Source of the DNA: Sphyrna mokarran
Lineage: Eukaryota
DNA length: 64,000 bases
Direction: 5' to 3'
Assembly (NCBI GenBank): GCA_024679065.1
Contig: JAGIQG010000040.1
Location: forward strand, 10,416,001 to 10,480,000
This document shows, piece after piece, positions 16,370 through 35,587 of this stretch. The translations under genes were made by a program, and so were the position numbers. The notes under the pieces are model-generated. The model saw only the letters and a program-made list of their open reading frames with translations. It was not told the origin of the DNA and did no database searches. How positions within the stretch are numbered: position 1 is the stretch's first letter; the number at the start of each line of letters is the position of its first letter.

Positions 16370-16622
16370 GAGTGACGGGATCAGATTTTGGGGTTGGGAG
16401 CTCCGAGTCAGTGATAACTGTGGAGCCTCGACTGAATCTTCCCAGCTTTCTGTCACCTTTCCATTCTCGAGTTTTATTTTAAACAATGGGCGTGGCCTAA
16501 ATTAACAATGTCCAGGCCTGAGGTATTTCAGTTCAGTTCTGAGATCCAGTGTCCCAGAGCAGCCAGACTCTGCAGTCTCCAGCTCCCCGTCACATAAACC
16601 ATCAGCTCCGGGCAGCAGAGAG
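16370..16622 (+). promoter_or_regulatory. Candidate V-gene promoter
   Basis: CRE half-sites TGACG (16373) and CGTCA (16588), TATA-like CATAAA (16593), overlapping GATA/MYB TGATAACTG (16412-16420), SOX-type AACAATG twice (16482, 16504), and GGGCGTGGC. Confidence 0.4.
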
Positions 16623-16665
16623 ATGGGAATCCTTCTTGTTTTCACTCTGTGTGCCTGTTTACCCC
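16623..16665 (+). CDS. Leader (signal peptide) exon of NAR-TCR V
   Basis: Encodes MGILLVFTLCACLP, has a phase-1 donor GTGAGT, and is followed by a 148-nt intron to the V acceptor. Confidence 0.9.
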
Positions 16666-16813
16666 GTGAGTATCGATCAAACTAACCCACATTGTGTGGA
16701 TTGGATATAAAGCTGTCCCAGCCCATCCCAATTACAGACACTGTTTGGGGTTTTAGCCCCGTTGTGTGGTTCGGATCTGATGGTCCATTAAACTCTCTGT
16801 GTTTAATTTCCAG

Positions 16814-17103
16814 GATCTTTCAGCCAGTCGGTGGTACAGAGCCCAGAAGCGGTGACCAAGAAGGAGTGTCAGTCTCTCACCATCAACTGTGTTTTCTATG
16901 GCGGATTCTTTGCTCGCCCTTTGGTTAACGGCGAGTTCTTCAAACAAACCCAGCCCGGGAAGGAGTGGGAGCCGATCCCCAGCGGAGGGAGATTTATTGT
17001 TTCTGTGAACGAAGCAGGAAAGACATTTTCGCTGGAAATTCGGGATGTGAGAGTTGAAGACGCCGCCACCTATTACTGTAAAGCTCATTATAAATACAAG
17101 ACA
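16814..17103 (+). CDS. NAR-TCR (IgNAR-like) variable segment
   Basis: SFSQSVVQSPEAVTKKECQSLTINCVF...GGRFIVSVNEAGKTFSLEIRDVRVEDAATYYCKA. Short V lacking the C'/C'' (CDR2) region, with NAR-like SLTINCV and GGRF motifs and an extra FR1 Cys. Acceptor ttccag at 16813. Confidence 0.9.
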
Positions 17104-17141
17104 CACAGTGATGGGCCTCGGCTTCCCGCGATACAAAAAAC
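17104..17141 (+). other. RSS of NAR V (22/23-bp spacer)
   Basis: CACAGTG + 22 nt + ACAAAAAAC. Confidence 0.9.
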
Positions 17142-17503
17142 TCTCGCTGCAGATTCTCACAGAACCAAAGCAAAAACCGGAGTTTATCTACCCTGAACAA
17201 TCCCCCCACCCCCCACTACCCCTCCCACCTGCCAATTCCCACAATTGTACCTCACACTCTCGGTGCCACAGTTTATTTTTAATAAGACCTGATTATCACC
17301 GTTGCTATGTTGAGTTTTATAAAGACGGAGTGTGAGTGGATGGGGCTGTCATTCCCGGGAGTGCTGTCGGTGAATTGAGAATGGAAATGACTGATCCCAG
17401 TTACAAACCCTGACACCAGATGGGATCCTCGGCTCACAGCCGGAACTGGGAGCCACTTTCCGCGCTGTTTAATTCATGTTCCAACATCCCACCCAGTCCC
17501 CGA

Positions 17504-17575
17504 GGTTTTGATGCTGAATTGTAACACTGTGTAATATATGGGGAGGTCACGGTGGAAAGAAGCTGAACAAATACC
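17504..17575 (+). other. D segment (17532-17547, TAATATATGGGGAGGT) flanked by 12/12 RSS
   Basis: GGTTTTGAT-12-CACTGTG, then D, then CACGGTG-12-ACAAATACC. Open frames NIWGG and IYGE. Confidence 0.9.
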
Positions 17576-17887
17576 TGTGCACAATTACACTATCAATACT
17601 CAGTACCCAGAGAGTGAATCATTGGTTTGATGATATTATCGCTGTGATCGGGATTATTTCTAATGTAATCTCCACCATTCACATCTTTCCTTGATTTTTT
17701 TTGCTATATATAAAGTGAATATTTCCTTCCTGCGGCCATTTACTTAGAGCTAAGGCCTCAGAAAATTACAATTTGAACCGACAGAGACGTTAAAACCTTG
17801 AATATTATTTATTGATTTTAAATCTCCCGAATAATTGGACACTTCCGAATGTGTGGTGATGGTTTTCCGGCAGATTGAGATATCGGT

Positions 17888-17984
17888 GGTTTTTGTACCG
17901 GGGAAATTGAAGGCGGAGTCACTGTGTATGAATGGAAAAATGCTGATGCGGATGGACCCGGGACGGTGGTGACTGTCACAGCCG
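17888..17984 (+). CDS. NAR-TCR J segment (17927-17984) with perfect 23-RSS
   Basis: GGTTTTTGT-23-CACTGTG; encodes YEWKNADADGPGTVVTVTA; phase-1 donor GTATGT. Confidence 0.9.
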
Positions 17985-20900
17985 GTATGTGACTACAAAT
18001 CCCCTCTTGTTACAGTCTGTCTCGTTTAATGCCCCCCTTAACTTTATCATTGTGATCGGTCTCGTTACAATCCCATCCAATCTTCCTGTGGAAAATCATC
18101 TCTAACAGATTACGAGTTGGGAGCAGGGTGGGATTCTGGAACAGGCTCCATTTCAGTCTCGGGGAAAGTCTGTTTGAGAGCTGATGGAGTCGGCCGTCAG
18201 TGGGATAGGGATAGTGGGACAAGACTTCGAGGGGAGAGGGGTGCGGGGGCGGAGTGGCTTCAGGGGAGAGGGTGGTGAGGCACGGGGTGGGGGTGCCAGT
18301 GTTAGGTGTAATATGGGAGTTGAGAATCTGGATGATTATCGGTTTAAGGGGCATCTAGAACTCTGACACCTCTGACAGCTTTTAACACACTCAACACTCG
18401 GGAATCCACTCTGGATGTTAACTGTGACTGAGGGAGATCTGGCTGTCGCTTCCAGTCCGACAACAGGATCACAAAGCTCTCTCTCCTGGGCAGTAGATTA
18501 CAGTCCTAGCCCTGGAATGTCAATGAAATACCGGCTGACTGAGATCAGTGTCACTGCGGCCGGTTTATTTAACCGCAGCGACTCATTCAATACCTGAACC
18601 AGGAGACAAAAAAAGGAAAATGACACAACGGACCACAGGTGGGAATGAACTGATTGTTGGCCCGGAGGAAAGTTGTAACAGAGAAATCAATGACTGAATT
18701 TACTGACATTTGTATAAAATTAATCGACAGGGAGAGAAAGGTCGGATTATCTCTGGAGAATGCTAAAAATATAATTATCACGATTTGATAATGAGACTTG
18801 TGGAAGTTCGGAGTGAAATGGACTCCTGTGGGGAATACTGTGTAAAATTTGGTCTTCTTTGTTATAGAAAGGTCTACATACATTGGAGGGAATTTACATT
18901 GCCTCCGTTTAATTTTGTTTTCTTATTTCCCACCGCTAGTGGTTAGTTCTGGAGCATAGATCTTCAGTAATTTTGCCAGGATATTTTCAGGGTCCATAGA
19001 TTTTGCAGAATTCAGTACCTTCAGCCGGTGCTGAGTTTTGTGAATTAATTAAACTGGATAAAGACTAACATCACTGATGTTGGGGATCTCTGGAGGAATT
19101 CCAGATGGATCATCCAAAGGATTCCTGTGGAGGAAGAATATTGGCACTGATGTAGCTTTATCTTCAGCAGACTGACAACTCACTTATAGGGATACGGCTG
19201 GGATTGCTCCTGAAGTCTTCATTGAACAAGTGTTACTCTCTTGTTCGCTAATGTCAATGCAGGGGACATGCTGGGTCATGAGGTTACAGATTATGTCTGA
19301 GTACAATTTTGCTATGCATGGCCCACAGTGCCTCAGGTTGCCAAGCATCATGTTGCTAAATCTGCTGGAAATCTGATCTGAAGGCGATGCCACACTACAA
19401 GATGGAGTGTAGATCAATGTGAAGTTAGGACTGAGAGAGGGGGATGAGGTGGAAGTCGTTGAGGGAGAACAGGAGAATAGCAAAGAATTGTGAAGAGAAT
19501 TTCTTTGAACAAGCAATACATGATTAATCGACAGGGAGTGACAGACTGGATTATCTCTGGAGAATGCTAAAAATATAATTATCGCGATTTCATAATGAGA
19601 CTTGTGGAAGTTCGGAGTGAAATGGACTCCTGTCGGGAATACTGTGTAAAATTTGGTCTTCTTTGTTATACATACATACATACATATATATACATATCTA
19701 CATACATTGAAGGGAATTTACATTGTCTTTTGTGAAGAGATTGAAGACCCAGATTTTAATTTGAGGTTAGAGGAATTAGGAGTGATCTCATTAGAATTTA
19801 TCACATTCTCAAAGGACTGGACAAAGCAAATTTTAGGTGTTTGTTTTTTTTTCCTAGGCGGGTGAGTCTATAACTTGAGGTCACATTTTCAGATTAACAG
19901 TTCAGTCAGTTGGATTAAGAAGAGGAGAAATTTCTTCAGTCAAAGCCATTGTGGTGAATCTGAGAATTCTGTACAGCAAAGAGCAGTGGTAGTCAGTGTT
20001 AAACACATTCAAGGCAGCGTTTGTGATATATCTGTACCGTGAAATAGTCAGGGGGAATGGGTCAACGCAGGAATTTCTTGTTGAGGCAGAAGATAAACTG
20101 CAACATTACTGATCGATGGCGCAGCTTTGAAATGTGAAACGGCCGCTCTTGCTTCTATTAGTTGGAAATTTTGCTTCGATTTCTGCATTTCTCAAGAAAT
20201 CAATCCGCAACAATGTCTGGGGTCTCTTTACATCTAGATATTAGAGAACAGTGAAGAGGATTCATGGAAATGGTTCATGTAATGAACATGTTAATGAGAT
20301 GGATGTCACCAAATTATTTATTTTTGGGTGTGTCTGGAGCAAGGGGCTATTAATATCTGATAGTGTTACAATCCCAGTTGATGTTACTATTGGATGGGAA
20401 GCTCCCAGATGAAAATTTGACTGGAAATAATGTAGTGTATTCTCCTGTTTTAGAACAATGGGGGGAATTGAATAATTGGATGGCCAATTAGATTTTAGTA
20501 ATAGAAGATAAAAACATTTATCAATCATGAAAAAGTTTTCTTTGACACAATTTACTATGACAGCCCAACTCTTCAAGACTGTACACAGACTTTAAGGATA
20601 ACACAGATTGCAAAATAAATCTTTGCTATCATGTACCCTGTAAATGCAATCCCTGTAAAACAAAAGGTCATTGTCTTCAGCTACACCCCATTCCAATACC
20701 CAGTGGTAGATACCATCCAATCAAATTTCTGTGAATTGCCCCTCAAAACCCCACAGATCATTAAAAGCTGTGAGCCAACTGGCCTCTCCAGACTCTCACA
20801 TAGACACGAGTGTTTCCCATTCCCCACGTTTGAAAAGTCATGTCTTTGGTAAATTCTACCAAATAACTCTTTGCCTGCTCTACTTTCATCAAGGATCCAC

Positions 20901-23323
20901 TTCCAGAATTTCGCATTTTGTTTTCACTATTCCTCTGTCTTGAATTCCCATATGAATTCAAGTTTCCATACAAGCTCAGAGGTGTGTCGCCATGCCAATA
21001 CTGCTTCACTGGCCTCACCAATATTATGATTATATCTGAAAGCTGGCTGGCCAACTTCACCAGGTCTGTGCAGTTCAGCTCTGCATTTAGCTGGGGTCCT
21101 TTGTCTCTGCCCCGTCTTCAACTTTGAGAATCAGTACATAGTTCAGTTTCGAGTTCCTTTGCCCCCCCAACCACCCCCACCCTCTCAGTTCAGTTGTCCT
21201 GGAACGTTTTCATTTCAGTTCCTTGGTTTCCAAAACTATGTGTTTTTTTATTATCTGGGATTTTTTTTTCTTCTTCTCCTTACTCCACTTATTGTTTCTG
21301 CTTTGACAGAGCAGGTGTTTTTTGTCTCATTGCGTATCTCCTAAAGCCTTGGGCCCAGTTAAACGCCTTCCTAATACAAAGGTGGCTCCTGGTTCCCAAG
21401 GAACAGCCTATTCCTACTTTACAGCGTTTTATTTTTCATGTCATTAACTCCCTCGGCATAATACAGACACCGTTTAAAATGAACGAAAAACCCGAAACAC
21501 ATTTGTTTGATATCAAGCTAACTAGAGTTTTACCCTAACTTATACAGAAACACTAAACTAAACTCAATTAAATCTATACCTCATTTCTAATATTCAATAA
21601 TACAATCACAGATTGCAGAAACCACCTCTGCCTCCTGACAATAGTGATTCAGAGAAAATCTAAATATCAAGAAGCAAAATTTAAAGTATCAGCCAGGATG
21701 TGAAACTCACTGTCATTTTGAATGTTTGGAGCAGCAGGTACTGATACATCTATAGGAAAACTTGAAAATATCAGAGGGAGAAGAGATCAGACTGACACAG
21801 GGAGCTGGATGGGAAAGATCAATTAGAAAACGGCGGGTTGAGGTTGGTCTGGAATATTTACACAGACATATCTGTGTAGGTCGAATTGTCTCTTCTTCTG
21901 CTGCTGTCCTATAAAAATTATAACTTATAGGAAACTCTGCCCAGAGACGCAGGGAAAGAGTCAGTTAATGAGCAGAAAAAAATGAAATAGTCAGAGATCC
22001 AGTGAGTCACAGTAAAACCACTGCGGAAACTGAACAGAATGAACACAACTGACAACAAGTATGAAATTTTCGGGCATGTTTCCACAACACAAAAAACGCG
22101 AACAACAAAAAGTAAATGAAATGCATCTGATTAGAGATTTCAATGTAAAGTGAAGGAGGGAAAACAATAGACTGACAGAAAATAAATAAATAGATTTAAA
22201 AGAAAGGCTTCCAGAAAGTGTTAAATTCAATTAAATGTCTGTACATTTGGCCACCGTTGTTCGGCATGTTTCTGCCCTGTTGAAGCTGATTAATCACAAT
22301 CATTTTTGTTGGATCTTGCTGTGCATTGTGATGTGAGCAGTTGGGTTACGCTTTGACAAGCATTTCTAGAAATGGATTGCGTCACTGATAATAAAATATT
22401 CCCTCAGTTTGTGTCCCAACATGGAACTGGAAGCTGAAATCGAGTATATATGGTAGAATCATTTAGCATGGAAGGGTGACATTCGGCCCCTCGGGTAGAT
22501 GCTGTCCCTTTATAAATGAAATCTAATTCTTCCACAAACTATGAATATTCCTGATAAACCTGTTGTTTTCCTGTTCATGTATGTGATCATTCCTCATTCA
22601 TAATTGACTGTTAAACCAGCTCTTACTAAGCTGACAGTGTGTTCATAAATTCACAGAATTTACAGCAAAAAAACAGGCCCTTCTTTCCAAACTGATCCGT
22701 GTGCCGATCAAAATGCCCATCTAAGCTCAACCATTCGCCTGCTTTTGGCCCATACCCTTCTAAAACTTTTCCCTCCATGTGTCAGTCCAAATGTCTTTTA
22801 AATGTTGTCAATGTCTATGCCTCAACCACTTCCTCCGGCAGCTCATTATACGTATCACCCTTTGTGTAAAAAAAGTTTTCTTCCCTGCAGAGTCCCGTTA
22901 ATTCCTTCTTGTTCTCGATTCTCAACCCTGGGAATAAAATTGAGTTCATTCGCTCTATCAGTGCCTCTTATGATCTTGTACTCTTTTACAAGCTCACCTG
23001 TCTGTCTCCTATGTACCAAAGGAAAAAGTCCAATCTCTGCCTGTAACTCAGTCCCTTGAATCCTGACAACATCCTTGTTAACCTCTTCTGCAATCTCTCC
23101 AGTTTAATAACATCGTTACAGATCATTTGTGCATTTGTGTTTGTTTGCGCAAAATAGAATATCATCTCATTGTACACTGGTTTATAGAGTAAATGAATCT
23201 CGTTCCATTGGAATTAAAATAATAACAACACCGCACAAAACTGAGCTACTCCCGCAACTGTCACAATCCCTGGGTAAAAAGTGGTAAGGCCTTAAAAAAA
23301 AGTGTTTTTTTTTAATCTGGCAG

Positions 23324-23628
23324 ATTCCCTGGTATCCAAGAATCCGCCTCTCCAAATCTCTGCTGCCGATGACACGGTTACTTTAAGCTGTGAATATTCA
23401 GGAATCTGTCAGTACACAGTGTACTGGTACAGTCAGTCCCCAGGACAGGGTCTGAAATACTTGCTTCAGAAAGACACTTCCGGACGGAACAATAAAGAAA
23501 ACGCTGCCGGAGAGAGAATTTCTGCTTCTATCGATTCTGTCGAGAAAATCAGCCGGTTAAAGATCTCCGAACTGCAACTAAGCGACTCGGCTACCTATTA
23601 CTGCGGACTGAGTCGGCACAGCCTGAAC
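23324..23628 (+). CDS. Leaderless supporting TCR-delta-like V segment
   Basis: DSLVSKNPP...VTLSCEYSGICQYTVYWYSQSPGQGLKYLL...LKISELQLSDSATYYCGLSRHSLN. Full V fold with WY and YYC motifs and an extra CDR1 Cys. Phase-1 acceptor is in frame with the NAR J donor; no leader exon found nearby. Confidence 0.9.
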
Positions 23629-23667
23629 CACGGTAGTTGAATCTCCCTTAACACCCGTACAATAACC
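23629..23667 (+). other. 23-RSS of supporting V
   Basis: CACGGTA + 23 nt + ACAATAACC. Confidence 0.8.
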
Positions 23668-23866
23668 TCCCAGCATCACGGGAGAAAACCAAGCTCTCTA
23701 AATAACACCCTCCCAACACCACTCCCACCACCATCTTCCATCTCCACCGAGTGTACACAATTATTTATCCCCCACCCTCTTCCCCCGTTCCCCACCCCAC
23801 CCCATCCACCCATTCCCGGTGCTGGGACACGGCAGAAGGACAGAGAGAGGTGGACAAGATCACAAC

Positions 23867-23955
23867 AGATCTGGTTATGGAATCAAACAGCGTGTAACAT
23901 GGAGAGACTAGAAAGCTCATCTTTGGCAATGGAAGCAGGCTGATTGTGGAACCCA
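23867..23955 (+). CDS. TCR alpha/delta-type J segment (23895-23955) with 12-RSS
   Basis: AGATCTGGT-12-CAGCGTG (weak nonamer); encodes *HGETRKLIFGNGSRLIVEP; donor GTAAGT. Confidence 0.85.
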
Positions 23956-24063
23956 GTAAGTAACTAATCCTGGATAATGATTACTCAACATGTTAGTTCC
24001 CCTCCGTGACTTCATGGAGCCATACAGTCACTGCGTTATTTCAATTAACACTATTTTTATATG

Positions 24064-27000
24064 GAACATAGAACATAGAACATTACAGCGCAGAACAGGC
24101 CCTTCGGCCTTCGATATTGCGCCGACCAATTAGGAAAAAGCAATGACCCTCTAACCTAAACCATTCCCTTTTCGTCCATAAACTTATCTACTAACCTCTT
24201 AAACGCCACCAAACTTGGCACATCTACAACTGCAGCAGGCAGGGCATTCCATACCTTACCACCCTCTGGGTAAAGAACCTACCTCTGACATCCGTCCTAT
24301 AACTACCACCCCTTAATTTAAAGCTATGTCCCCTCATGCTAGCTTTCTCCATCCTAGGAAAACGGCTATCACTGTCCACCCTATCTAAACCTCTAATCAT
24401 CTTATATGTTTCAAAAAGGTCTCCTCTTAGCCGCCTTCTTTCTAACGAAAGCAACCTCAAATCCTTCAGCCTCTCTTCATAAGACTTGCCCTCCATACCA
24501 GGCAACATCCTGGTAAACCTCCTCTGTACCCTCTCCAATGCCTCCACATCTTTCTTATAATGCGGGGGCCAGAACTGCACACAATACTCCAAGTGCGGCC
24601 GCACTAGAGTTTTGTACAGTTTGCAACATGACGTTGCGGCTCCGAAATTCAATCCCCCTACCAATAAAAGCTAAGACTCCGTATGCCTTCTTAACAACCT
24701 TATCAACTTGATTGCCAACTTTCACGGATCTATGCACATATACACCAAGATCCCTCTGTTCATCAACACTATTAAGAGTCCTACCATTAGCCCTATACTC
24801 TACACATTTGTTATTCCTGCCGAAGTGAATTACCTCACACTTTTCCACATTAAACTCCATTTGCCACCTCTCGGCCCAGCTCTGCAACTTGTCCAAGTCT
24901 CTCTGCAAACTATAACACCCCTCTTCACTATCTACCACTCCACCGACTTTAGTGTCATCTGCAAAATTTACTAATCCATCCTTCAATACCCTTATCCAGA
25001 TCATTTATAAAAATTACAAACAGCAGGGGCCCCAAAACAGACCCCTGAGGTACACCACTTGTCACCGTACTCCAAGATGAATATCTCCCATCAACCACCA
25101 CCCTCTGTCTTCTACCTGCTAGCCAATTCCTAACCCAATTAGCTAAATCACCCGCTATCCCATACATCTGCATTTTCTGCAGAAGCCTTCCATGGGCCAC
25201 CTTATCGAACGCCTTACTAAAGTCCATATATACCACATCAACTGCCTTACCCCCATCCACCTCTTTGGTCACTTTTTCAAAAAACTCAATAAGGTTAGTA
25301 AGGCACGACCTACCCTTCACAAAACTATGCTGACTATTCCCAATCAATTCATTTCCCTCTAAATAACTATAAATCCTATCCCTAATAATTCTTTCCAATA
25401 TTTTGCCCACAACAGAAGTAAGACTCACCGGTCTATAATTCCCAGGAAAGTCCCTATTTCCCTTCTTGAACAATGGGACCACATTCGCTATCCTCCAGTG
25501 TTCCGACACTATACCAGTAACCAACGACGACCTGAAGATCAGAGCCAGAGGTTCTGCAATTGCCTCTCTCGCCTCCCAGAGAATCTTAGGGTAAATCCGT
25601 CCGGCCCAGGGGGCTTATCTAACTTCAAACCCTCAAGAATATCTAGCACATCCTCCTTATCTACTTCAATACTTTGAAGTTTACAACCCTGTATCCCAGT
25701 GTTCTCCACTACTACATTTGCATCTCCCTGCGTGAATACCGAAGAGAAATATTTGTTCAGTGCCTCTCTAATCTCTTCAGGCTCCACGCACAACTTCCCA
25801 CTGCTGTCTCTGACTGGCCCTAATCTTGCCCTAACCAATTTTCTATTCTTAACATATCTAAAGAAAGCTTTAGGATTCTTCTTGATCCTATCAGCCAAAG
25901 TCTTCTCGTGTCCCCTTTTAGCTCTTCTCAACTCACTCTTCAGCTCCCTCCTGGCTAATCTATAGCTAACCAGTGCACTAACTGAGCCTTCAAGCCTCAT
26001 CCTGACATAAGCCTCCTTTTTCCTTTTAACCAGCGAATTAACTTTTTTAGTACACCACGGTTCCCTTACTCGACATTTCCTCCTTGCCTGACAGGGACAT
26101 ACTTATCAAGGACTCGCAGTAGCTGCTCCTCGAATAAGCTCCACATTTCAGATGTTCCCAGTCCCTGTAGTGTCTAGTCCAATCTATACACCCTAATTCC
26201 CTCCTTATGGCCTCATAATTACCATTCCCCCAGCTATAACTACTGCCCCCAGGTTCATGCCTATTCCTATCCATCACTAAGGTGAACGTAACCGAATTGT
26301 GGTCACTATCACCAAAATGTTCACCAACTTCCAAGTCTAACACCTTGTCTGGCTCATTGCCCAGCACCAAATCCAATGTAGCCTCACCTCCAGTTGGCCT
26401 ATCTACATACTGAGTCAAAAAACCGTCCTGCACATTTTGTATAAAAACTGACCCCTCTAACGAGCTAGAGCTATAGCTATTCCAATCAATATTAGTAAAG
26501 TTAAAGTCCCCCATAACAATTACCCTATTCCTTTCATTCCTGTCCAGGATCGACTTTGCAACCCTTTCCTCTACCTCTCTAGAACTTTTAGGAGGTCTAT
26601 AAAAGACTCCCAACAGGGTGACCTCTCCTCTCCTGTTTCTAATCTCAGCCCATACTACCTCAACAGACAAGTCCTCATCAAACTTCCTTTCTGTCACTGT
26701 GATACAGTCTTTGACTAATAATGCCACTCCTCCCCCCTTCTACCTCCTTCTCTACTCTGACTGAAGCATTTGAACCCCGGAACCTGCAACAACCATTCCT
26801 GTCCCTGCTCTATCCATGTCTCTGAAATGGCCACAACATCGAAGTTCCAGGTACTGATCCAAGCTGCAAGTTCCTCCACCTTATTGCGAATACTTCTTGC
26901 ATTAAAGTATGCGCATTTCAAACCATGCTCTACTCCACCCGTACGCTGCTGTGCTTTACAGTTCTCATTTATGACCCCCCCATTCTCGTCCCTCTTAACA

Positions 27001-28000
27001 TCCAAGCTACTCAGGATCCCACCCTCCCTCTGAATCAGTTTAAACCCCCCCTGCATAGCCTTTGCAAATTTTCCCTCCAAGATATTGGTTCCCCTCTGGT
27101 TCGGTTGTAGACCATCTCTCTTGTAGAGGTCCCACCTACCCCAGAATGAGCCCCAATTGTTCAAGAACCTGAACCCCTCCCTCCTGCACCATCCCCTCAG
27201 CCACGAGTTCAAACATTCCCTCTCTCTGTTCTTCTCTAAACTATCCCGTGGCACAGGCGAGAGTCCAGAGATAACCACTCTGTCGGTTTTGGCCCTAAGC
27301 TTCCACCCCAACTCCATAAATTTCTGTTTAATATCCCCTTCCCTTGTCCTACCTACATCATGTGTCCCTACATGAACTATGACTTGGGGCTGACTCCCCT
27401 CTCCCTTAAGAATCTTGAAAACCCGCTCTGAGACGTCCTGGACCCCGGCCCCTGGTAGGCGACACACCAGCCCTGAGTCCCGTTTATTACTATTTACTCT
27501 TCTATCTGTCCCCCTAACTATGGAGTCTCCAATTACCAGGCCCAATCTCTTATTTCCCCTACCCACCTGAGCCTTCCCAGCAGACTCACCCCCAGAGACC
27601 TGCTCTCTTTGGCTATCCGAGTTGATTCTTCCTGAACTGTAGCCTCCAGGACAGAAAACTTATTTTGGAGGGGAACAGCCCCAGGGGATTGTCTCCCCGA
27701 TTGCTTCTTACCCCTCTTCCTAATAGTTACCCAAGAATCTCTTTTAGGAGTGACTATCTCTTTGTAACTCCTGTCAATATCAGCCTCAACCTCCCGAATT
27801 ATCCGGAGTTCCTCTAATTCCAGCTCCAGCTCCTTAACATGATCCTCAAGGAGCTGCAAATGGGCACACTTCCTGCAGGTATGTTCAGCAGGAACACTAC
27901 TGGTGTCCCTCACCTCGTACATACCGCAGGGGGTGCAATGTACTGCCTGCACTGCCATCCCTGATACTTTAATTTCTAGGAGAAAAAAAAACTTCCCACA
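24064..28000 (-). mobile_element. Near full-length CR1 LINE (ORF1 zinc finger/coiled coil + SGNH esterase; ORF2 APE-RT), frameshifted
   Basis: ORF1 from ATG at 27958 (CTPCGM...CRKC, LVIGDSIVRG); APE (YFNARSI, MGDFN, SDHN); RT ([21 protein letters not shown]); (CATAGAA)n tail at 24064. Split over about 7 ORFs. Confidence 0.92.
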
Positions 28001-28588
28001 CACGGGGGAAGCACACGGGGAAACGGGTGAGCAGTTCTCATTGGGAATCCAAAGAACAGCTTCACTGGGCATTGAGATAGAGCAGATGAGAGCTTTATTT
28101 CCACAATTCAAGATTGTTTCCTTAAAACATTTAACTGGCCTTTATCATAAAACCCACCTGATAGCTGGCAAGGAGATGTATTGATGAAATTGTTGTTTGT
28201 AATGCAATTAAATGAGAATGAGAGATAGAGATAGAGAGAGAGAGAGAGACTCCTGCTCAGCCACGCCTAATATATAACATGGCTTTCTCAAGCTTTCAGC
28301 TCTTCACAAAAAAATCTAGCGTCTTCGTCCAAAAATAGCTATCACTGAAAGCAGAGCAATTCTTTCACTGGGCGAAGCGAGGCAATTTGGTTTTTAATTT
28401 GTGCTTGGCTGTGCATATATTTGAAGGATTTTATAAGATCCATTGTCCCTCTCTTGGTGGTAGATAATTTTTAAGGTTTACTATTCGCATACGATGGCAG
28501 TTGTCGAAGCTCCCACTCACATTTATGAACATGCCAGTATCCTTATTTTCAATATTGGTTGGAATCTGAATAAGTTGCTGCGCTTGTA

Positions 28589-28681
28589 GATTTCTGCTGG
28601 TAACTGTTCACAGTGCTCATTACTATGACGGTACTTAGAAACTCAACTTTGGGTGCGGGAACTAACTGAATGTTGTACCAA
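28589..28681 (+). pseudogene. Pseudo-J segment
   Basis: AGATTTCTG-12-CACAGTG, then YDGT*KLNFGCGN*LNVVP; the GT donor is lost. Confidence 0.65.
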
Positions 28682-29302
28682 TTAGATGCCAGCTGATTTA
28701 TCTTTACCCTTCGATGGACATTTCTGGTAAACCCGTGTCTGGCGAATGGTGACAAAAAGCGAAGGCAATGCTTAAAATTAAAAGCAAACCGTTAGATGGA
28801 TTAATGCATCATTAGATATTTAATTAGAACGGTAGAGATCCAAAGAATATAAATCAGTAAATTCGTAGATATCACACAAATTGGTGTTGTGATGAGTAGC
28901 GAGGAGGAAAACCTTACATTATAGATCGATATAGAAAGTTTGGTTAAATGGACAGAGAAGTAGAAAATTGAAAGTGAACCTTTAAAAGTGTAATGTGGTG
29001 CATTTTGGCAGGACTAACAGGGCAAGGATATATACAGAAATTAATGAAAACTGCATGGAAGGGAAGTTAAACTGCTGGCTATGTCTTCAACTTTTTTGAA
29101 ACAGAGAAAAAACAAATAAAACAAAATACCTAAATGGGGATGGGTTTCAGGGAAATGAATAGTTGCATTTCTTCTTTGGAGATCACCTGGCATTATAATT
29201 TGAATCCTAATCTATGGTCAAATCACCAAGCAGGTCAAAAACAACCTCTTGCATTACTGTCAGCACGGGACTAATAGATTTGTGTAGCGTCTGTTATGAT
29301 TG

Positions 29303-29946
29303 CTCAGACATTGAATACAAGAGTTAGGGCGTTTTGTTGAAGTTGTACAAGGCATTGGTAAGTTCACACTTGGAATATTGTGTACAATTCTGGTCACCCT
29401 ATTATCGAAAGGATATAATTAAACGAGAAAGAGTGCAGAAAAGGTTTACTAGGATGTTACCGGGACACATGAAGGTTTAAGGCTGGATAGAGCGGGACTG
29501 TTTTCTATGGAGTGTACAAGGCTGAGGGCGGTCTTATAGAAGTCCGTAAAATAATGAGGGTCTCAGATCAGCGAGATAGTCAATACATTTTCCCAAAGGT
29601 AGGAGAGTCTAAATCTCGGGGTGGAAGGCTGGGCAGGGGAAGGGTGAGGGGGGACATAATTTACGGGTAGAGTGGAAAGACACAGAAGTGTCCAGAGAGG
29701 CATTTTTTATATATACAGAAGGTGCTGAATGTAACAACTTGCCAGAGGTAGTAGCAGAGGCGGGTACAATTTTATCTTTTAGAAAGCATTTGGACAGTTA
29801 CATTGGGTAAGGTGGGTATACAGGGAAATGGGGCAAGTGTGGGCAATTGGGTTTAGCTTATGGGTTTAAAAAGAAAGTCTGTATGAACAAGTTAGGCCGA
29901 AGGGCCTGCTTCCATGCTGTAAATCTCTATGATTCCTTGACTCTAT
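29303..29946 (+). mobile_element. 5'-truncated CR1 LINE inserted into a J RSS
   Basis: ORF2 3' motifs (HLEYCVQFWSP) and a CTATGATT tail; flanked by TATGATTG on both sides. Confidence 0.8.
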
Positions 29947-30013
29947 GATTGTGTCATCCCCACAACTGAAAGATTGATCCTTGGTACTTGAACAAAACTC
30001 ACTGTGGAAAGTC
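29947..30013 (+). pseudogene. Pseudo-J segment
   Basis: Heptamer GATTGTG, then IPTTERLILGT*TKLTVES and donor GTATGC. The nonamer and spacer are stranded at 29277-29297. Confidence 0.75.
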
Positions 30014-33000
30014 GTATGCATCTTCACAAAGTTACATTACAAAGCACTTATATAGCTCGTCCCTAAATGTGGAAGGCAGTGGGGTGTTGCCTTGTTGAAT
30101 CTGCTGCACTCATCCACGTGTTGTGTGTATTATTCCATCCTGCCTATAAAACATTTCCATTGTGTGGAGAGATTGAGGGGAGTGCGGTGGCCAGTTGTTA
30201 TTTGAGGTTAGCAAATGCATTAAGATTCTGATCATTCTTCCCCTCAAAGTTCTTTTTTACACGATCCCAGTAAATAATGTATTGGCCTGTTACGTTCAAA
30301 TGGATGGGAAGTGAGAGCGTTTATATTCTTACCTGGATATAACCTGCCCTGGCTATTGCAGTCAGCAAAATCTGAAATTGAATTCGAACTCACTTAGGAG
30401 AGATATATAAATAAATCATATTTCTGCTCATGTGGTTGGGTTTAGTTTTTTTTATCCCATTATGTACAGATGTGCTGGCACCAAAACTTTAAAACGTGTC
30501 TTTGGCAAATTCATTTCACGACCTAACAAGACGTTTAAAAACGTCAGCTTGGATCTGGTTGGGACTTAAGTAATTGGCGTTCCTTAAAGATTCTCAAGGA
30601 CTCTTCCTCATGTGAACTTTGTGTATTCCCTGCCTCTGAATTATTGAGTATGTTTCATCAATACTAAATGACACTGCAGTTTCACTCCAATGGAAGGTGC
30701 TTTTTATACAGGATATTATGACTTTACTGTGAAGCTGCGGCAGCGAGTTGACAGTTTTGCCAAGTGAGGACGATTGGAAATTACTGCCATTCTCCTTCAT
30801 GTCGATTATTTTTTCGCTGTATTGTGTCTGACAACTAGCAAGCGGGCAATGATACAAAGTATTATATGAAATACAAGTTAAGGCATTCTGTCCGTAAAAT
30901 GAACTTCAGAAAGATAGATGGATAACGAGCTCAGGTCTCAATGTTCAGTTAGACATTCCGCAGGTGGCAGACCAATCTCTGGGCTTCAGCAATGTGACAG
31001 ATATTGATGCGTGACTTACTGGTTGACCTTGCATCATGGTGATGTTGTGTAACTGGGGGGGAAGCGATGTCCTGGTCGTATTATCGCAAAATTATTAACC
31101 CAGAGACACAGCGAATATTTGAGGGACCTGGGTTCGAATTCCATCACAGCAGATGGTGGAACTTAAATTCAATAATCTGGAATTAAGAATTTACTGGTAA
31201 GCAGGAAAACAATTATCGATTGTTGGGGAAAAAAAAGCTGTCTGGTTCTCTCTTGTCCTCTGGGAAGGAAACATAGCAACATTGAAGATGGGAGCTGGAA
31301 GAGGGGTTTGGCCTTTCAAGCATGATCTGCCATTTATTATGATCATGATTGAACATCCACTCAATAGCCTAAACCCACTTTCTCTCCATAACCTTTGATC
31401 CCATTCGCCCAAGTGCTATATCCAACCGCTTCTTGAACGCATTCAATCTTCTGGCAACCACTACTTCCTACTTTCACAGGCTCATCACTTTTTGGGCGAA
31501 GAAATGTCTCCTCATCTAATATATCTTGTCCTGTTCGAATTTTATAAATCTCTATGAAATCCATTGTCATTCCTTTCAGTCAGTCTCCCGAATATATGAA
31601 AGTCAAATCTCGCCTCATACCTTCATAATCTCCTTTATTAAGATTCAGCACAGTAATCTCTGAGTCAACTGCTTCACTCTCACCTTGATTAAAAAAAATC
31701 TCATGTTATGTTCACTCATCCCCCAAGGGGTCACACGCAGCTGGATTGGCAATTATCACTTTCTCACTACACAGTACACAGTCCAAGATGGTCTGCTCTC
31801 TAGTTAGTCCTTCACATATTGATCAGGGAAACCATCCCGTATCAGATTCAGGAAATCCTCCTCTACAGCATTGCGCTAATTTGATTTGCTCAATCAATGT
31901 GCAGATTAAAATCACCCTTTATCACCGATATTTCCTCATCACATGTATCTCTAATTTCGTGTTTAATGTCATTTCCAACATCACCACTGCATTTTCGTTG
32001 CCTGTATATGACACTCACTGATATTTCTGCCCGTTGGTGTCTCTCAAGTCTACTCATATAGATTCCACATTATCAAAACTAATATCATTTCACACCAGTT
32101 TGCTAATTTCCTCTTTACCAGCAGTGCCACTCCAAAAACTTTTCCTTTATGTATAATATATATTATATATTTATCCTAAATATTGAATACTCTGGGACAT
32201 CCTTGGAAACCCTGCAGCCATGTCTCCGCAATCCCAATTATAGCACGGCCATTCACATCTATTTGCAAGATTAGTTTATCCACTTTGCTGCAAATGCTCT
32301 GTGCATTAAGACAGAACCTTTAAGTTTTTGTTTTCACTTTGATTGTCTCATTCTCAGTATTTTTCTCTATAGCCCTTTACAAGTGTTGTCTTTGGTTTCT
32401 CTGCCTATCATGTTTTTAATCCCTTTTCGACCTCTTGTTCATTTTATCCTTGTTCCCTCCTTCCCTGACTCCTTACATAGGTTCCGGGTCTCTGGTTTCC
32501 TCCCACATCCCAAAGATGTGCTCTTAGGCTGATTGGCAGAACAAATTCTCCCTAAATTGTCTCAAATTTGGTTTTTAATCCATAGATCTATAAACACGGA
32601 CAGGGATTGCGGGTAGAGATGGGAACATGGTGGGGGGGGGGGGTGCGGCGCGGGCTCTTTGGGCCGAAGGGCCTGTTTCCCGTGCTGTTTTGTTCTTTGA
32701 TCTTTAACCACCTGGAATATTAGATTTATTTGCGTGACCTTGTAGTATTGTGAGGTGGTGAGACTGAAAGGAGGCAATGCTCGAGTGGTGTTTTCCTAGA
32801 TTATTAATCCGCAAAGTCAATCAATGTTCTGGGGATCCTGCGTTCGAATCCTACCATGGTAGATGGTGGAATTCGAATTTAATAATCTGGAATTAAGAAT
32901 CTACTGCTGACGATGAAAGCAAATGTTGGAAAATCACATCTAGTTTAGGAATATCCTTTACAGAATGAAATCTGCCATTCTGATCTGACCTGGCCTATAT

Positions 33001-33688
33001 GTGCAATTTGCATGACTCTCAAGGGCAGTTGGGAATGGATAATAAATTCTGGCCAGACAACGGTGCCTATGTCCCACGACCAAATATACATCTCTCTCTC
33101 TCTTTCTTTGAAAATAAGTCCGAGTAACAGTTGATGCAACTAAATGTAAACGCATCTTTCAGACTCAACATGTCTGCTTACCTCTTCGGAATCTAACAGG
33201 ATTATGAAAATAAGAACAGATAATACTGGTTAAAACCCCAGCAGGTCCGGAAACATCTCAAAGGAGAGAAAGCTTAGCTAACAAATTAAGTATTATTCAT
33301 TGAATTGTATTTATTTTCTACCAGATGTTGAGGCACCACAGGCAAGACCATATTACAAATTGCTGTTAAGCCATTTCAGAGATCGGCAGAGCAGGAGCGA
33401 AGGGCTGAATGGCCTTCCCGTGTTCCCATGGTTCCTAACAAAAGTTCAGAGTTCTGTTGCAGGGGGAGGACATGGATTGCTTTATTTGACCAGTGGCTAC
33501 CCTGGCTCAGAAATTCTTCACATTGGTAGAATTCTAAAGCATCCAAGGAGGCCTTTCGGCCCACTTAGCCTGTGATGGTGGGAAGGGATAAGATATGCAA
33601 TATCTGTTATCTGCAGCGAATCAGTGATTGTTCCAACTTTATCTTTGCCGTGAATTGTCTGAAATCTGTAACAGCTATCACAATAGAA

Positions 33689-33766
33689 GGTTTCTGTCTG
33701 AGCAATTGTTTCTGTGATATGAAAAGCTGACATTCAGCAGCGGCACCCAGGTGACAGTTATACCAA
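33689..33766 (+). CDS. TCR J segment (33717-33766) with 12-RSS; FGxG motif altered to FSSG
   Basis: GGTTTCTGT-12-TTCTGTG; encodes YEKLTFSSGTQVTVIP; donor GTGAGT. Confidence 0.8.
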
Positions 33767-34139
33767 GTGAGTGGGAAGTCAGTGTGTTATTATTCTTTCA
33801 CTCCACATCTCCTCTGTGATCTACTTTTCTGTTGTAAGTAGTCTAGTCAAGTTGGGCAGAGTGCCAACATGACATGTGGCATGCAAGCGAGGAGATTGGT
33901 TAGTTTTGAGTCAGTTTTGATCTAGCTCAGTTTACCCAGGCATTAGAGGCACATTGGAAAGGAGTTGGGACTGCACGCCTCAGTAATATGGTATTGAACT
34001 GAGAAACAGATTTGTGTCGTGTGAACGGGATAGGAAGATTCCATTCAGAGAGTTGATTTAAATGAGAGAGGGGAGACGAATAAGCATCATTGTTCTGTTT
34101 AAACCGTTGTAATTGTGAATTACACAGGCTTTTCATTCT

Positions 34140-34920
34140 CTTGGCGAAAAATGAACTTTCCTCATATCAGTCCCATACTACTTGAATATGAACCCTGGTT
34201 CTGGACCCTGCCTCCACTCTGCATCTACCCTGTCTAATCCTACATTATATGTTTTAGTGACATCTTCTCCTCCTGTCTTCCTTCTTCTGAACCCCAGACA
34301 ATAAAATCCTAACTGGCTCAATCTCCCCTCATATGTCAGTCCTGCCACTCCAGAATCTGTCTGGTGAACTTCTGTCCACTCCCTCTTTAGCATCAACTGT
34401 ACTGCACTAGTCTACCTTTTTGGCTATGCCTTCAAAAATTCATTCAAATTTATGAGATACGATTTTCCACTCACAAATCCATGTTGAATTTCCCTAATCA
34501 GTCCTTGCATCTCTAAATGGCTGTAAATCCTGTCTCTCAAAATATATTTCAACAATTTACCCACCACAGATGTGAGGCTCACTGGCCTGTAGTTTCCAGG
34601 CTTTTCCCTGTAGCCCCTTTTAAACAAAGACACAACATTTGCCACTTTCCAATCTTCAGGTACCTCACCTGAGTCTAACGATGATCTAAATATCTCTGCG
34701 CGGGAACCCGCAAATTTCTCCCTTGCCTCCCATAATATCCTGGGATACACCTCATTAATTTTCGGGGATTCATCGATCTCAATGCGCTGTTAGACTTCCA
34801 GCACCTTTTTCTCTGTTATATTTACACTCCCAAAGACATCAGTATTTTTTCCCCAATTTCCCTAACAACGACGCTTCTATTAACAGTGAATACTGGTGAG
34901 AAATATTCAATTAGGATCTC
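34140..34920 (-). mobile_element. CR1 LINE RT fragment
   Basis: PEDWKVANV...[15 protein letters not shown] motif. Confidence 0.8.
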
Positions 34921-35275
34921 ACCCGCGTGTGTTCGTGTATGTGTGTGTGTATGTGTCTGTGCATGTATGTGTGCCTGCTTGTGTGCACAGGCATGTGCGC
35001 ACGTGTGTGTGTGTCTGTGTGTGTGTGTGTGTCTGTGTGTGTGTGTGTGTCTGTGTGTGTGTGTCTGTGTGTGTGTCCGTAGCAGAGAGAGAGAGGGCGT
35101 TTTCTGTGCCAGGGGAAAAGGATTATTCATCCAGTCTCAGCATTCGGTAAGTTAATGGAGAAACTTACGTAGGGTTAAGACACAGGAAAAATGCGGTCTA
35201 ATCGAATGGCACAGCAGGTTGGGGGATGTCACCCTGTTGGATTCTGATTTTTTTTCCTTTTATTTTCATTTTCAG

Positions 35276-35587
35276 AGGCGAAAGGCCCGGAAGAACCAAA
35301 ATTGAGCGTCTTTTACCCGCCAGTGCCACCGGGAGCCACCAACACCAGCACCGCTGCAGTATGCTTGGCCTCGGACTTCTCCCCCAAGGCAATCCAGCTC
35401 TCCCTGTACACGGGATCCGGCCAGGAGGTCAATGTGACAAGATCCAGTGTCCCATTGGAGAGTGGGAATTACAGGAGCTCGGGTTTCCTCTCTTTCCCCA
35501 AATCCGGGAAATCACCAAACATCACGTGCAAGGCATTTCACAATAATCAGATTTACTCAATAAACGTCCTACCCACAGCTGAAATTG
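35276..35587 (+). CDS. TCR-delta-like constant C1 domain exon
   Basis: (K)AKGPEEPKLSVFYPP...AAVCLASDFSPK...NVTRSS..LESGNYRSSGFLSFPK...NITCKAFHNN. Two canonical Cys, three N-glycosylation sequons, phase-1 AG/GT boundaries. Confidence 0.88.

Follow-up and report, generated by a model that had tools for sequence, protein, structure and literature searches.

We analyzed a 64,000-nucleotide stretch of the Sphyrna mokarran genome (the window), whose positions 1-64,000 correspond to G000:C994:10416001-10480000, C994 being contig JAGIQG010000040.1. The window carries a gene of the NAR-TCR type, a doubly rearranging T-cell receptor (TCR) delta gene. It comprises a leader exon, a variable (V) segment of the new antigen receptor (NAR) type with its own diversity (D) and joining (J) segments, a leaderless V-delta (the supporting V) with J-delta segments, and the constant (C), connecting-peptide and transmembrane exons of a TCR-delta chain (Table 1). 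All exons of this copy are open and every splice phase matches. A preliminary description of this DNA, made from its letters alone, had noted two recombination grammars in one gene, V-D-J followed by D-less V-J. It had missed that the gene is complete with its own C-delta, that there are further J segments in the second module and that many such clusters exist.

The first module encodes the tip domain. In a PDB search with its V, 28 of the 30 best matches were VNAR-type by name or length (best E 2.8e-17), and the canonical Trp is replaced by Phe (GEFFKQ). The leader-to-V splice (16665->16814, GT..AG) was found in a contig of sequencing run X3, which stems from a related species, is represented by contigs only and has a guessed RNA status. 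A scan for recombination signal sequences (RSSs), scored by mismatch counts against the consensus and not by recombination information content (RIC) scores, gave NAR V(22)-(12)D(12)-(23)J. This agrees with the immunoglobulin heavy-chain-style V(22/23)-(12)D(12)-(23)J proposed earlier, the V spacer being 22 bp and not 23. The 12/23 rule bars joining of a V with a 22-bp spacer to a J with a 23-bp spacer, and D is therefore obligatory in this module. Under the same rule, the NAR V 22-RSS (17104-17141) could pair with the 12-RSSs of the second module (23867-23894 and 33689-33716); such direct joining would delete the supporting V and yield a two-domain NAR V-C-delta chain.

The second module reads supporting V(23)-199 bp-(12)J-delta, with two open J segments and two pseudo-J. 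The preliminary description had given a V(23)-(12)J arrangement with RSSs about 200 bp apart, and the measured distance bears it out, albeit with a weak J RSS. The absence of an RSS-flanked D also held: in an RSS scan of the region that the preliminary description had named (23.6-35.3 kb), three thresholds all failed to reveal a facing RSS pair in 23600-23900 or in 23668-35275, which extends as far as the constant exon (shuffled versions of the latter averaged 0.00, 0.03 and 0.87). The strictest setting recovered the D of the first module and both D-delta segments of the ordinary locus. No leader homologue for the supporting V was found in the preceding intron, and none of nine ATG frames in the 620 nt upstream is leader-like. 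The first germline codon of J1 is a stop, so J1 needs trimming. The second open J has FSSG in place of FGXG in 7/7 cluster copies that retain it. Downstream of J1, the window and the two paralogues closest to it share an insertion of about 4 kb (24064-28020) that more distant ones lack; part of it has a copy near the ordinary C-delta, with 92% identity over 3.2 kb. It is likely a retroelement and could be used for dating the duplications.

The RSS behind the supporting V matches that of a D-delta segment. It is identical at 36/39 positions to the 3' RSS of the D-delta at C994:3851834, sharing the heptamer CACGGTA, the nonamer ACAATAACC and 20/23 spacer positions. The spacer agrees at 19/23 positions with the second D-delta and at only 7-9/23 with the RSSs of seven native supporting Vs. 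Homology to an ordinary D-J-C-delta unit begins at 23627, two bases before the heptamer, and from this point (23627-23629) the window is collinear with both ordinary units through J, C, transmembrane exon and 3' end. Because the RSS and its spacer derive from the D-delta-J1 interval, the V must have been joined to D-delta in the germline, and the V-J spacing of about 199 bp is the old D-to-J1 distance. The V has inherited the 3' signal of the D, and the D 5' RSS has been lost along with the original RSS array of the V and the DNA in between; no match to a D-delta 5' RSS was found anywhere in the window. The preliminary description was thus right that the unit is D-less, but it is not a plain V-J unit: it is a germline V-D fusion with an RSS captured from D-delta. 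A genome-wide DNA search with 23629-23960 returned 13 matches, namely seven fused copies, four copies of a sister subtype and two ordinary D-J1 intervals. The fused copies are about 90% to 98% identical to the window in DNA, and the presence of the fusion in seven such paralogues shows that it is germline.

The constant region also derives from TCR-delta. Its transmembrane segment holds the Arg and Lys typical of TCR-delta, and cluster-type C-delta is marked by an AKGPE.. start and a short hinge. The 15-nt loss in the hinge falls between two GACAGA/CCCAGA-like words and leaves the stalk of the cluster copies five residues shorter.

Genome-wide, 13 C-delta exon matches were found (67/67 candidates scored), two of them ordinary and 11 in clusters or fragments. 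The ordinary D-J-C-delta units, at 3.87 Mb and 5.36 Mb of C994, each have five J segments that look intact and a single (12)D(23), and both sit within a dense V array (~3.3-6.3 Mb). This array also contains two J-alpha-like arrays at 3.08-3.11 and 4.39-4.45 Mb, located by pattern (60 matches vs 23 in a reversed control); a PF09291 profile search for C-alpha gave no match. The NAR cassettes within the array have supporting Vs with native RSSs and no J nearby. Of the C-delta exons outside the array, eight map to C994:10.4-12.3 Mb and three to contigs C47, C180 and C1271; 10/11 are preceded by their own NAR V-D-J, supporting V and J, the remaining one being an orphan J-C. Five of the seven window-type supporting Vs belong to complete genes, one lacks hinge and transmembrane exons and one lacks C; the sister-type supporting Vs number four. 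All 11 cluster C exons form one group (98/95 with protein, 98/97 with DNA) and are 87-90% identical to ordinary C-delta; the short hinge is common to 10/10 copies with a hinge exon. With the window at 10.42-10.48 Mb and the V array ending at about C994:6.3 Mb, the clusters lie 4-6 Mb outside the V-alpha/delta array, amid other C1-set-domain genes. Some copies may be haplotype duplicates, but not all, since identity ranges from about 90% to 98%.

Table 1 Features of the window gene and of the D-delta segments used for comparison.
Feature	Position in window	Strand	Remarks
Leader exon (MGILLVFTLCACLP)	16623..16665	+	Exon mapping; donor and acceptor seen in a run X3 contig
NAR-type V	16814..17103	+	KKECQ Cys in a-b loop; ends C-KAHYKYKT
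22-bp-spacer RSS of NAR V	17104..17141	+	CACAGTG-22-ACAAAAAAC; RSS scan
NAR D, 16 nt	17532-17547 (with RSSs 17504..17575)	+	12-RSS on either side
23-RSS of NAR J	17888-17926	+	Perfect; RSS scan
NAR J	17927-17984	+	YEWKNADADGPGTVVTVTA; YEWKNADA-DGPG
Leaderless supporting V-delta	23324..23628	+	CDR1 Cys (YSGICQY); fusion scar in the final 7 nt (23622-23628)
23-RSS behind supporting V	23629..23667	+	CACGGTA-23-ACAATAACC; from D-delta 3' side
199-bp interval without D	23668..23866	+	Homologous to the ordinary D-delta-to-J1 interval
Degenerate 12-RSS of J1	23867-23894	+	Mismatches to consensus: heptamer 2, nonamer 4
J-delta 1	23895-23955	+	Stop codon followed by HGETRKLIFGNGSRLIVEP; V-J1 join and J1-to-C splice in run X3 contigs
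Pseudo-J	28589..28680	+	11-bp spacer; stop or frameshift in every frame
Pseudo-J	30712..30763	+	No FGXG, no good RSS
12-RSS of second open J-delta	33689-33716	+	Better than that of J1
Second open J-delta	33717-33766	+	YEKLTFSSGTQVTVIP; FSSG replaces FGXG
Private C-delta exon	35276..35587	+	C1-set above cut-off; 89-90% nucleotide identity to both ordinary C-delta exons
Connecting-peptide exon with Cys	38463..38510	+	15 nt shorter than that of ordinary C-delta
Transmembrane exon with stop	39118..39228	+	Conserved Arg and Lys (LRILFLK)
Likely poly(A) signal	41024..41029	+	Flanks collinear with both ordinary C-delta 3' ends; use inferred
D-delta cores of ordinary units			GGTATACGCTGGGAC, TGGGATATAGCTGGGA

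Taken together, these findings suggest, with a probability of about 0.72, that the window holds a complete stand-alone NAR-TCR gene with a V-D-J tip and a single-V-J support, in which a germline event, probably RAG-mediated, attached the supporting V to the D-delta 3' signal. In this scenario, an ancestral NAR cassette would have joined a spare D-J-C-delta unit in a germ cell, and the joined unit would then have been amplified, lost most of its J segments and shortened its hinge. In a T cell, V-D-J joining would build the tip domain and one V-J join the supporting domain, and splicing after both rearrangements would give a leader-NAR V-supporting V-C-delta-transmembrane chain. The two extra Cys would probably connect the V domains to each other. 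With TCR-gamma as the partner chain, the NAR V would remain unpaired when binding antigen, and the supporting V would serve mostly as a structural element with a single joint that varies.

Several observations weigh against this reading. The J1 RSS has six mismatches, the other open J carries FSSG, and in two fused copies the heptamer is the weaker CACGTTA. Haplotype duplication could account for some copies that are 98-100% alike, and incomplete neighbors occur (one without hinge and transmembrane exons, one without C, one orphan J-C). The scar CCTGAAC is an exact match to the supporting-V RSS repeat but only a loose fit to a D remnant, and the sister join sits where repeat and D-delta look alike, which makes a microhomology-mediated deletion possible. 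No same-species RNA with the C exon was found among runs recorded as RNA, so that expression of the window copy is a prediction. Five runs matched weakly, with 5-12% of words, four of which were compared with 16550-24100 only; run X1 gave no coverage of the V exons in that interval. The somatic joining of the second module is seen in a single junction, in one contig of a relative (15 differences in 200 nt) from a run guessed to be RNA. That junction may stem from an ordinary-locus cassette with its D trimmed off, and the C start in run X3, VKDPEKPK, fits neither C type exactly. The comparable entries from Mustelus asterias discussed below are gene predictions, compared here as protein models.

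That germline RAG made the fusion, by joining the 23-RSS of the V with the 12-RSS on the 5' side of D, is probable in our view. The same anatomy and function could have resulted from ordinary or microhomology-mediated deletion, an explanation that we consider possible though clearly the weaker one. The breakpoints are the V end and the D core, the D 5' RSS is absent, and the 7-nt scar is ambiguous. It corresponds to the end of the repeat nonamer plus 5 nt, clear P nucleotides were not seen at the join, and at the sister-subtype join the tandem-RSS repeat (..GTGGGGATTATAG..) resembles the D-delta at C994:5380996-5381011 (..GTGGGATATAG..). As the scar equals the native RSS repeat, a later deletion may be involved. 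However, the right-hand break falls within the 15-16-nt D core in either subtype, and the left-hand break at, or close to, the coding end of a 23-RSS, even though native cassettes are 146-451 kb from the nearer D-delta; the D 5' RSS has gone without a trace. Pairing of 23 with 12 is, moreover, what RAG requires, and germline VD, VDD and VJ joins with RAG signatures are known in shark immunoglobulin (Ig) genes (PMC2193156).

The sister subtype reached V(23)-(12)J by a different route. Its four members keep the V's native RSS in two to three tandem copies. The last copy continues into a remnant resembling D, the RSS of the D is decayed, and J1 alone is left. D-J1 intervals are 72-74% identical between subtypes and 70-78% identical to the ordinary units. 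The C exons of both subtypes group together while these intervals diverge, which bears on whether there were one or two origins. In the sister clusters (C994:10976518-10988818, C47, C180 and C1271), one to four germline-joined NAR VDJ exons without a leader also separate the supporting V from the rearranging NAR module; their leader start is lost and their donor GT is changed to AT or absent. These exons predict chains of 4-7 Ig domains, and a similar joined CDR3 (complementarity-determining region 3) occurs in the great white shark model XP_041031384.1 ('NARTCR V(gj)V(gi)V', PMC12227049 table S1).

The preliminary description had also proposed that the supporting domain is near-invariant, which would make it resemble the marsupial V-mu-j. 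We consider this unlikely, and too strong as a statement. One joint replaces two, the choice of J segments falls from about five to one or two, and the seven fused supporting Vs are 91-100% identical. On the other hand, the RSSs persist, so joining must be somatic; the stop heading J1 forces trimming; and a run X3 contig joins V at 23622 to J1 at 23908 with GCGG inserted, in frame, giving C-GLSRHSAARKLI-F with 12 residues and no D core. Relative to the window, this junction lost 6 + 13 nt and gained 4, indicating that the supporting CDR3 is not fixed; another X3 contig splices J1 to the C-delta start. With one somatic joint and two open J segments, 'limited diversity' suits the domain better than 'near-invariant'. 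The long germline ends reported for the NAR CDR3 (KAHYKYKT and YEWKNADA) are present, but those of the supporting CDR3 are similar, at 8 + 9 codons against 8 + 8 plus D. A concentration of diversity on the NAR CDR3 would be plausible.

A further alternative sees in the clusters duplicates of a NAR cassette with J-C-delta that are in decay and seldom or never used. The weak J1 RSS, the FSSG J, the two pseudo-J, the truncated neighbors and the failure to find a same-species transcript fit such decay, which we nonetheless regard as improbable: the window-copy exons are all open and in phase, 11/11 cluster C exons and 11/11 cluster supporting Vs are stop-free despite 26-28% divergence of the D-J1 interval between subtypes, the J1 RSSs of the ordinary units are likewise degenerate, and a relative, Mustelus asterias, has similar multi-copy gene models. 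That the fusion is an artefact of assembly, or a somatic V-D join contributed to the assembly by a lymphocyte, can practically be dismissed. Three copies are on small unplaced contigs and identities of 98-100% occur among several, but the fusion recurs in seven paralogues with identities as low as about 90% and with RSS substitutions particular to each, and a somatic join would be unique.

NAR-TCR of the nurse shark and the elephant shark was reportedly described by Criscitiello in 2006. By each sequence feature tested, the window gene is a NAR-TCR: it has an N-terminal V with a leader that is related to the IgNAR V, a leaderless supporting V-delta with a CDR1 Cys, two 12/23-compatible RSS modules that predict two RSS-guided rearrangements, and a TCR-delta constant region with a charged-residue transmembrane segment. 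It shares with the nurse and elephant shark receptors the NAR-type V on a leaderless supporting V-delta and the TCR-delta constant region; there, too, the NAR-TCR V has a Cys in the a-b loop and lacks the canonical Trp, and the supporting V-delta has a CDR1 Cys (PMC1845163). Its layout is unlike the published one, however. NAR-TCR is placed in the TCR-delta locus, uses TRD C and is said to have 'two diverse V domains' (PMC5931798, PMC3149040, PMC2275272, PMC12227049), that is, a cassette sharing the ordinary D-J-C-delta. Here, J and C-delta are private to each cluster and lie beyond the V array, and the supporting V already carries a D-delta RSS fused to it, with no free D. Owing to this private J-C outside the array, we regard the window gene as a variant NAR-TCR layout. 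The NARTCR entries in table S1 of PMC12227049 are given as V cassettes of great white shark and stingray, and no entry carries a label for a C of its own; the table further includes 'NARTCR V(gj)V(gi)V' as well as a 152-kb model named 'TCRa VVCtm'. Neither stand-alone NAR-TCR clusters nor a V-D-fused supporting V were found in full-text literature searches, although the primary NAR-TCR papers may mention them, and a text search of the elephant shark genome supplement for three terms gave no match.

The likeness to platypus TCR-mu that had been suggested extends to the cluster layout and to the D-less supporting domain. Both systems form [V-D-J]-[V-J]-C clusters with their own delta-derived C, a diverse tip and a D-less support (PMC3457774, PMC7615758). 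In the window this D-less state, the counterpart of a pre-joined or D-less supporting V, is traceable to the V-D fusion, and the two are not orthologous. The V segments of platypus TCR-mu are VH-like and its tip uses multiple D, whereas here a NAR tip with one D stands on a V-delta support. Mammalian TRM orthology was likewise not indicated, the tip being VNAR-like and the C 87-90% identical to the animal's own C-delta. The window gene would thus work like platypus TCR-mu without being TCR-mu. Marsupial TCR-mu resembles it in its tandem clusters with their own C, some of them partial, and in germline joining that touches the supporting V; unlike V-mu-j, which is wholly pre-joined and invariant, a somatic V-J join remains here. 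Germline-joined shark Ig clusters offer a parallel in that a partial join at RSS borders in a minicluster was fixed and amplified, but those are Ig genes and the join here concerns a TCR-delta supporting V (PMC2193156).

The closest named proteins, at 89-91% identity, come from Mustelus asterias. In this species we found nine predicted C-delta proteins on nine contigs, among them XP_078059098.1, XP_078059177.1 and XP_078056650.1; eight came from the ten matches of one search, the ninth being a cluster member found separately. Of these models, 5/9 combine NAR V, supporting V and C, one of them with a cluster-type J1 (TRKLIFGNGSRLIV), and four of nine supporting Vs group with the fused type (95/92). 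Its C-delta falls outside the cluster group and lacks the five-residue hinge deletion. Orthology with the Mustelus clusters was considered and is unsupported, as C-delta grouping and hinge length disagree with it.

We tentatively propose, at somewhat less than even odds, that some sharks possess a separate TCR-mu-like isotype, in which NAR-TCR left the translocon by germline RAG joining to form antibody-style miniclusters with a private short-hinged C-delta. Such an isotype would define its own T-cell subset, with sister clusters stacking one to four pre-joined NAR domains into chains of 4-7 Ig domains. According to reviews, cartilaginous-fish TCR genes are in translocon form (PMC6795676), and NAR-TCR converged with TCR-mu in protein shape (PMC7615758). 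In the present clusters this convergence reaches the genome level, with a stand-alone layout, a private delta-derived C and a one-joint supporting domain, and they keep an intermediate that is only a postulate in models of TCR-mu origin (PMC3457774). They also suggest that germline RAG activity remodels TCR as well as Ig loci. Given the sequence difference between ordinary and cluster C-delta, a single animal could be used to test the pressure on the supporting domain to lose diversity. The V-D fusion that underlies the D-less second module and the cluster organization are the more notable results.

Further features were noted outside the window. The TCR alpha/delta core looks duplicated, with two J-alpha-like arrays and two D-J-C-delta units (3.85-3.87 and 5.36-5.38 Mb), each unit having a VH-like V 8-19 kb upstream. 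In-array NAR Vs at C994:3397420, 3411668, 3418529 and 3602317 are fused to their own D and keep the D 12-RSS, giving V(12)-(23)J cassettes. Native supporting Vs are trailed by 61-bp tandem 23-RSS repeats with up to seven recognizable copies (C994:3400624-3401270, 3406661-3407263 and 3607276; C1271:53493). Between the TCR array and the clusters, C994:6962702-6964780 holds an IgNAR-like V accompanied by a J and by several RSS sites of D-like type.

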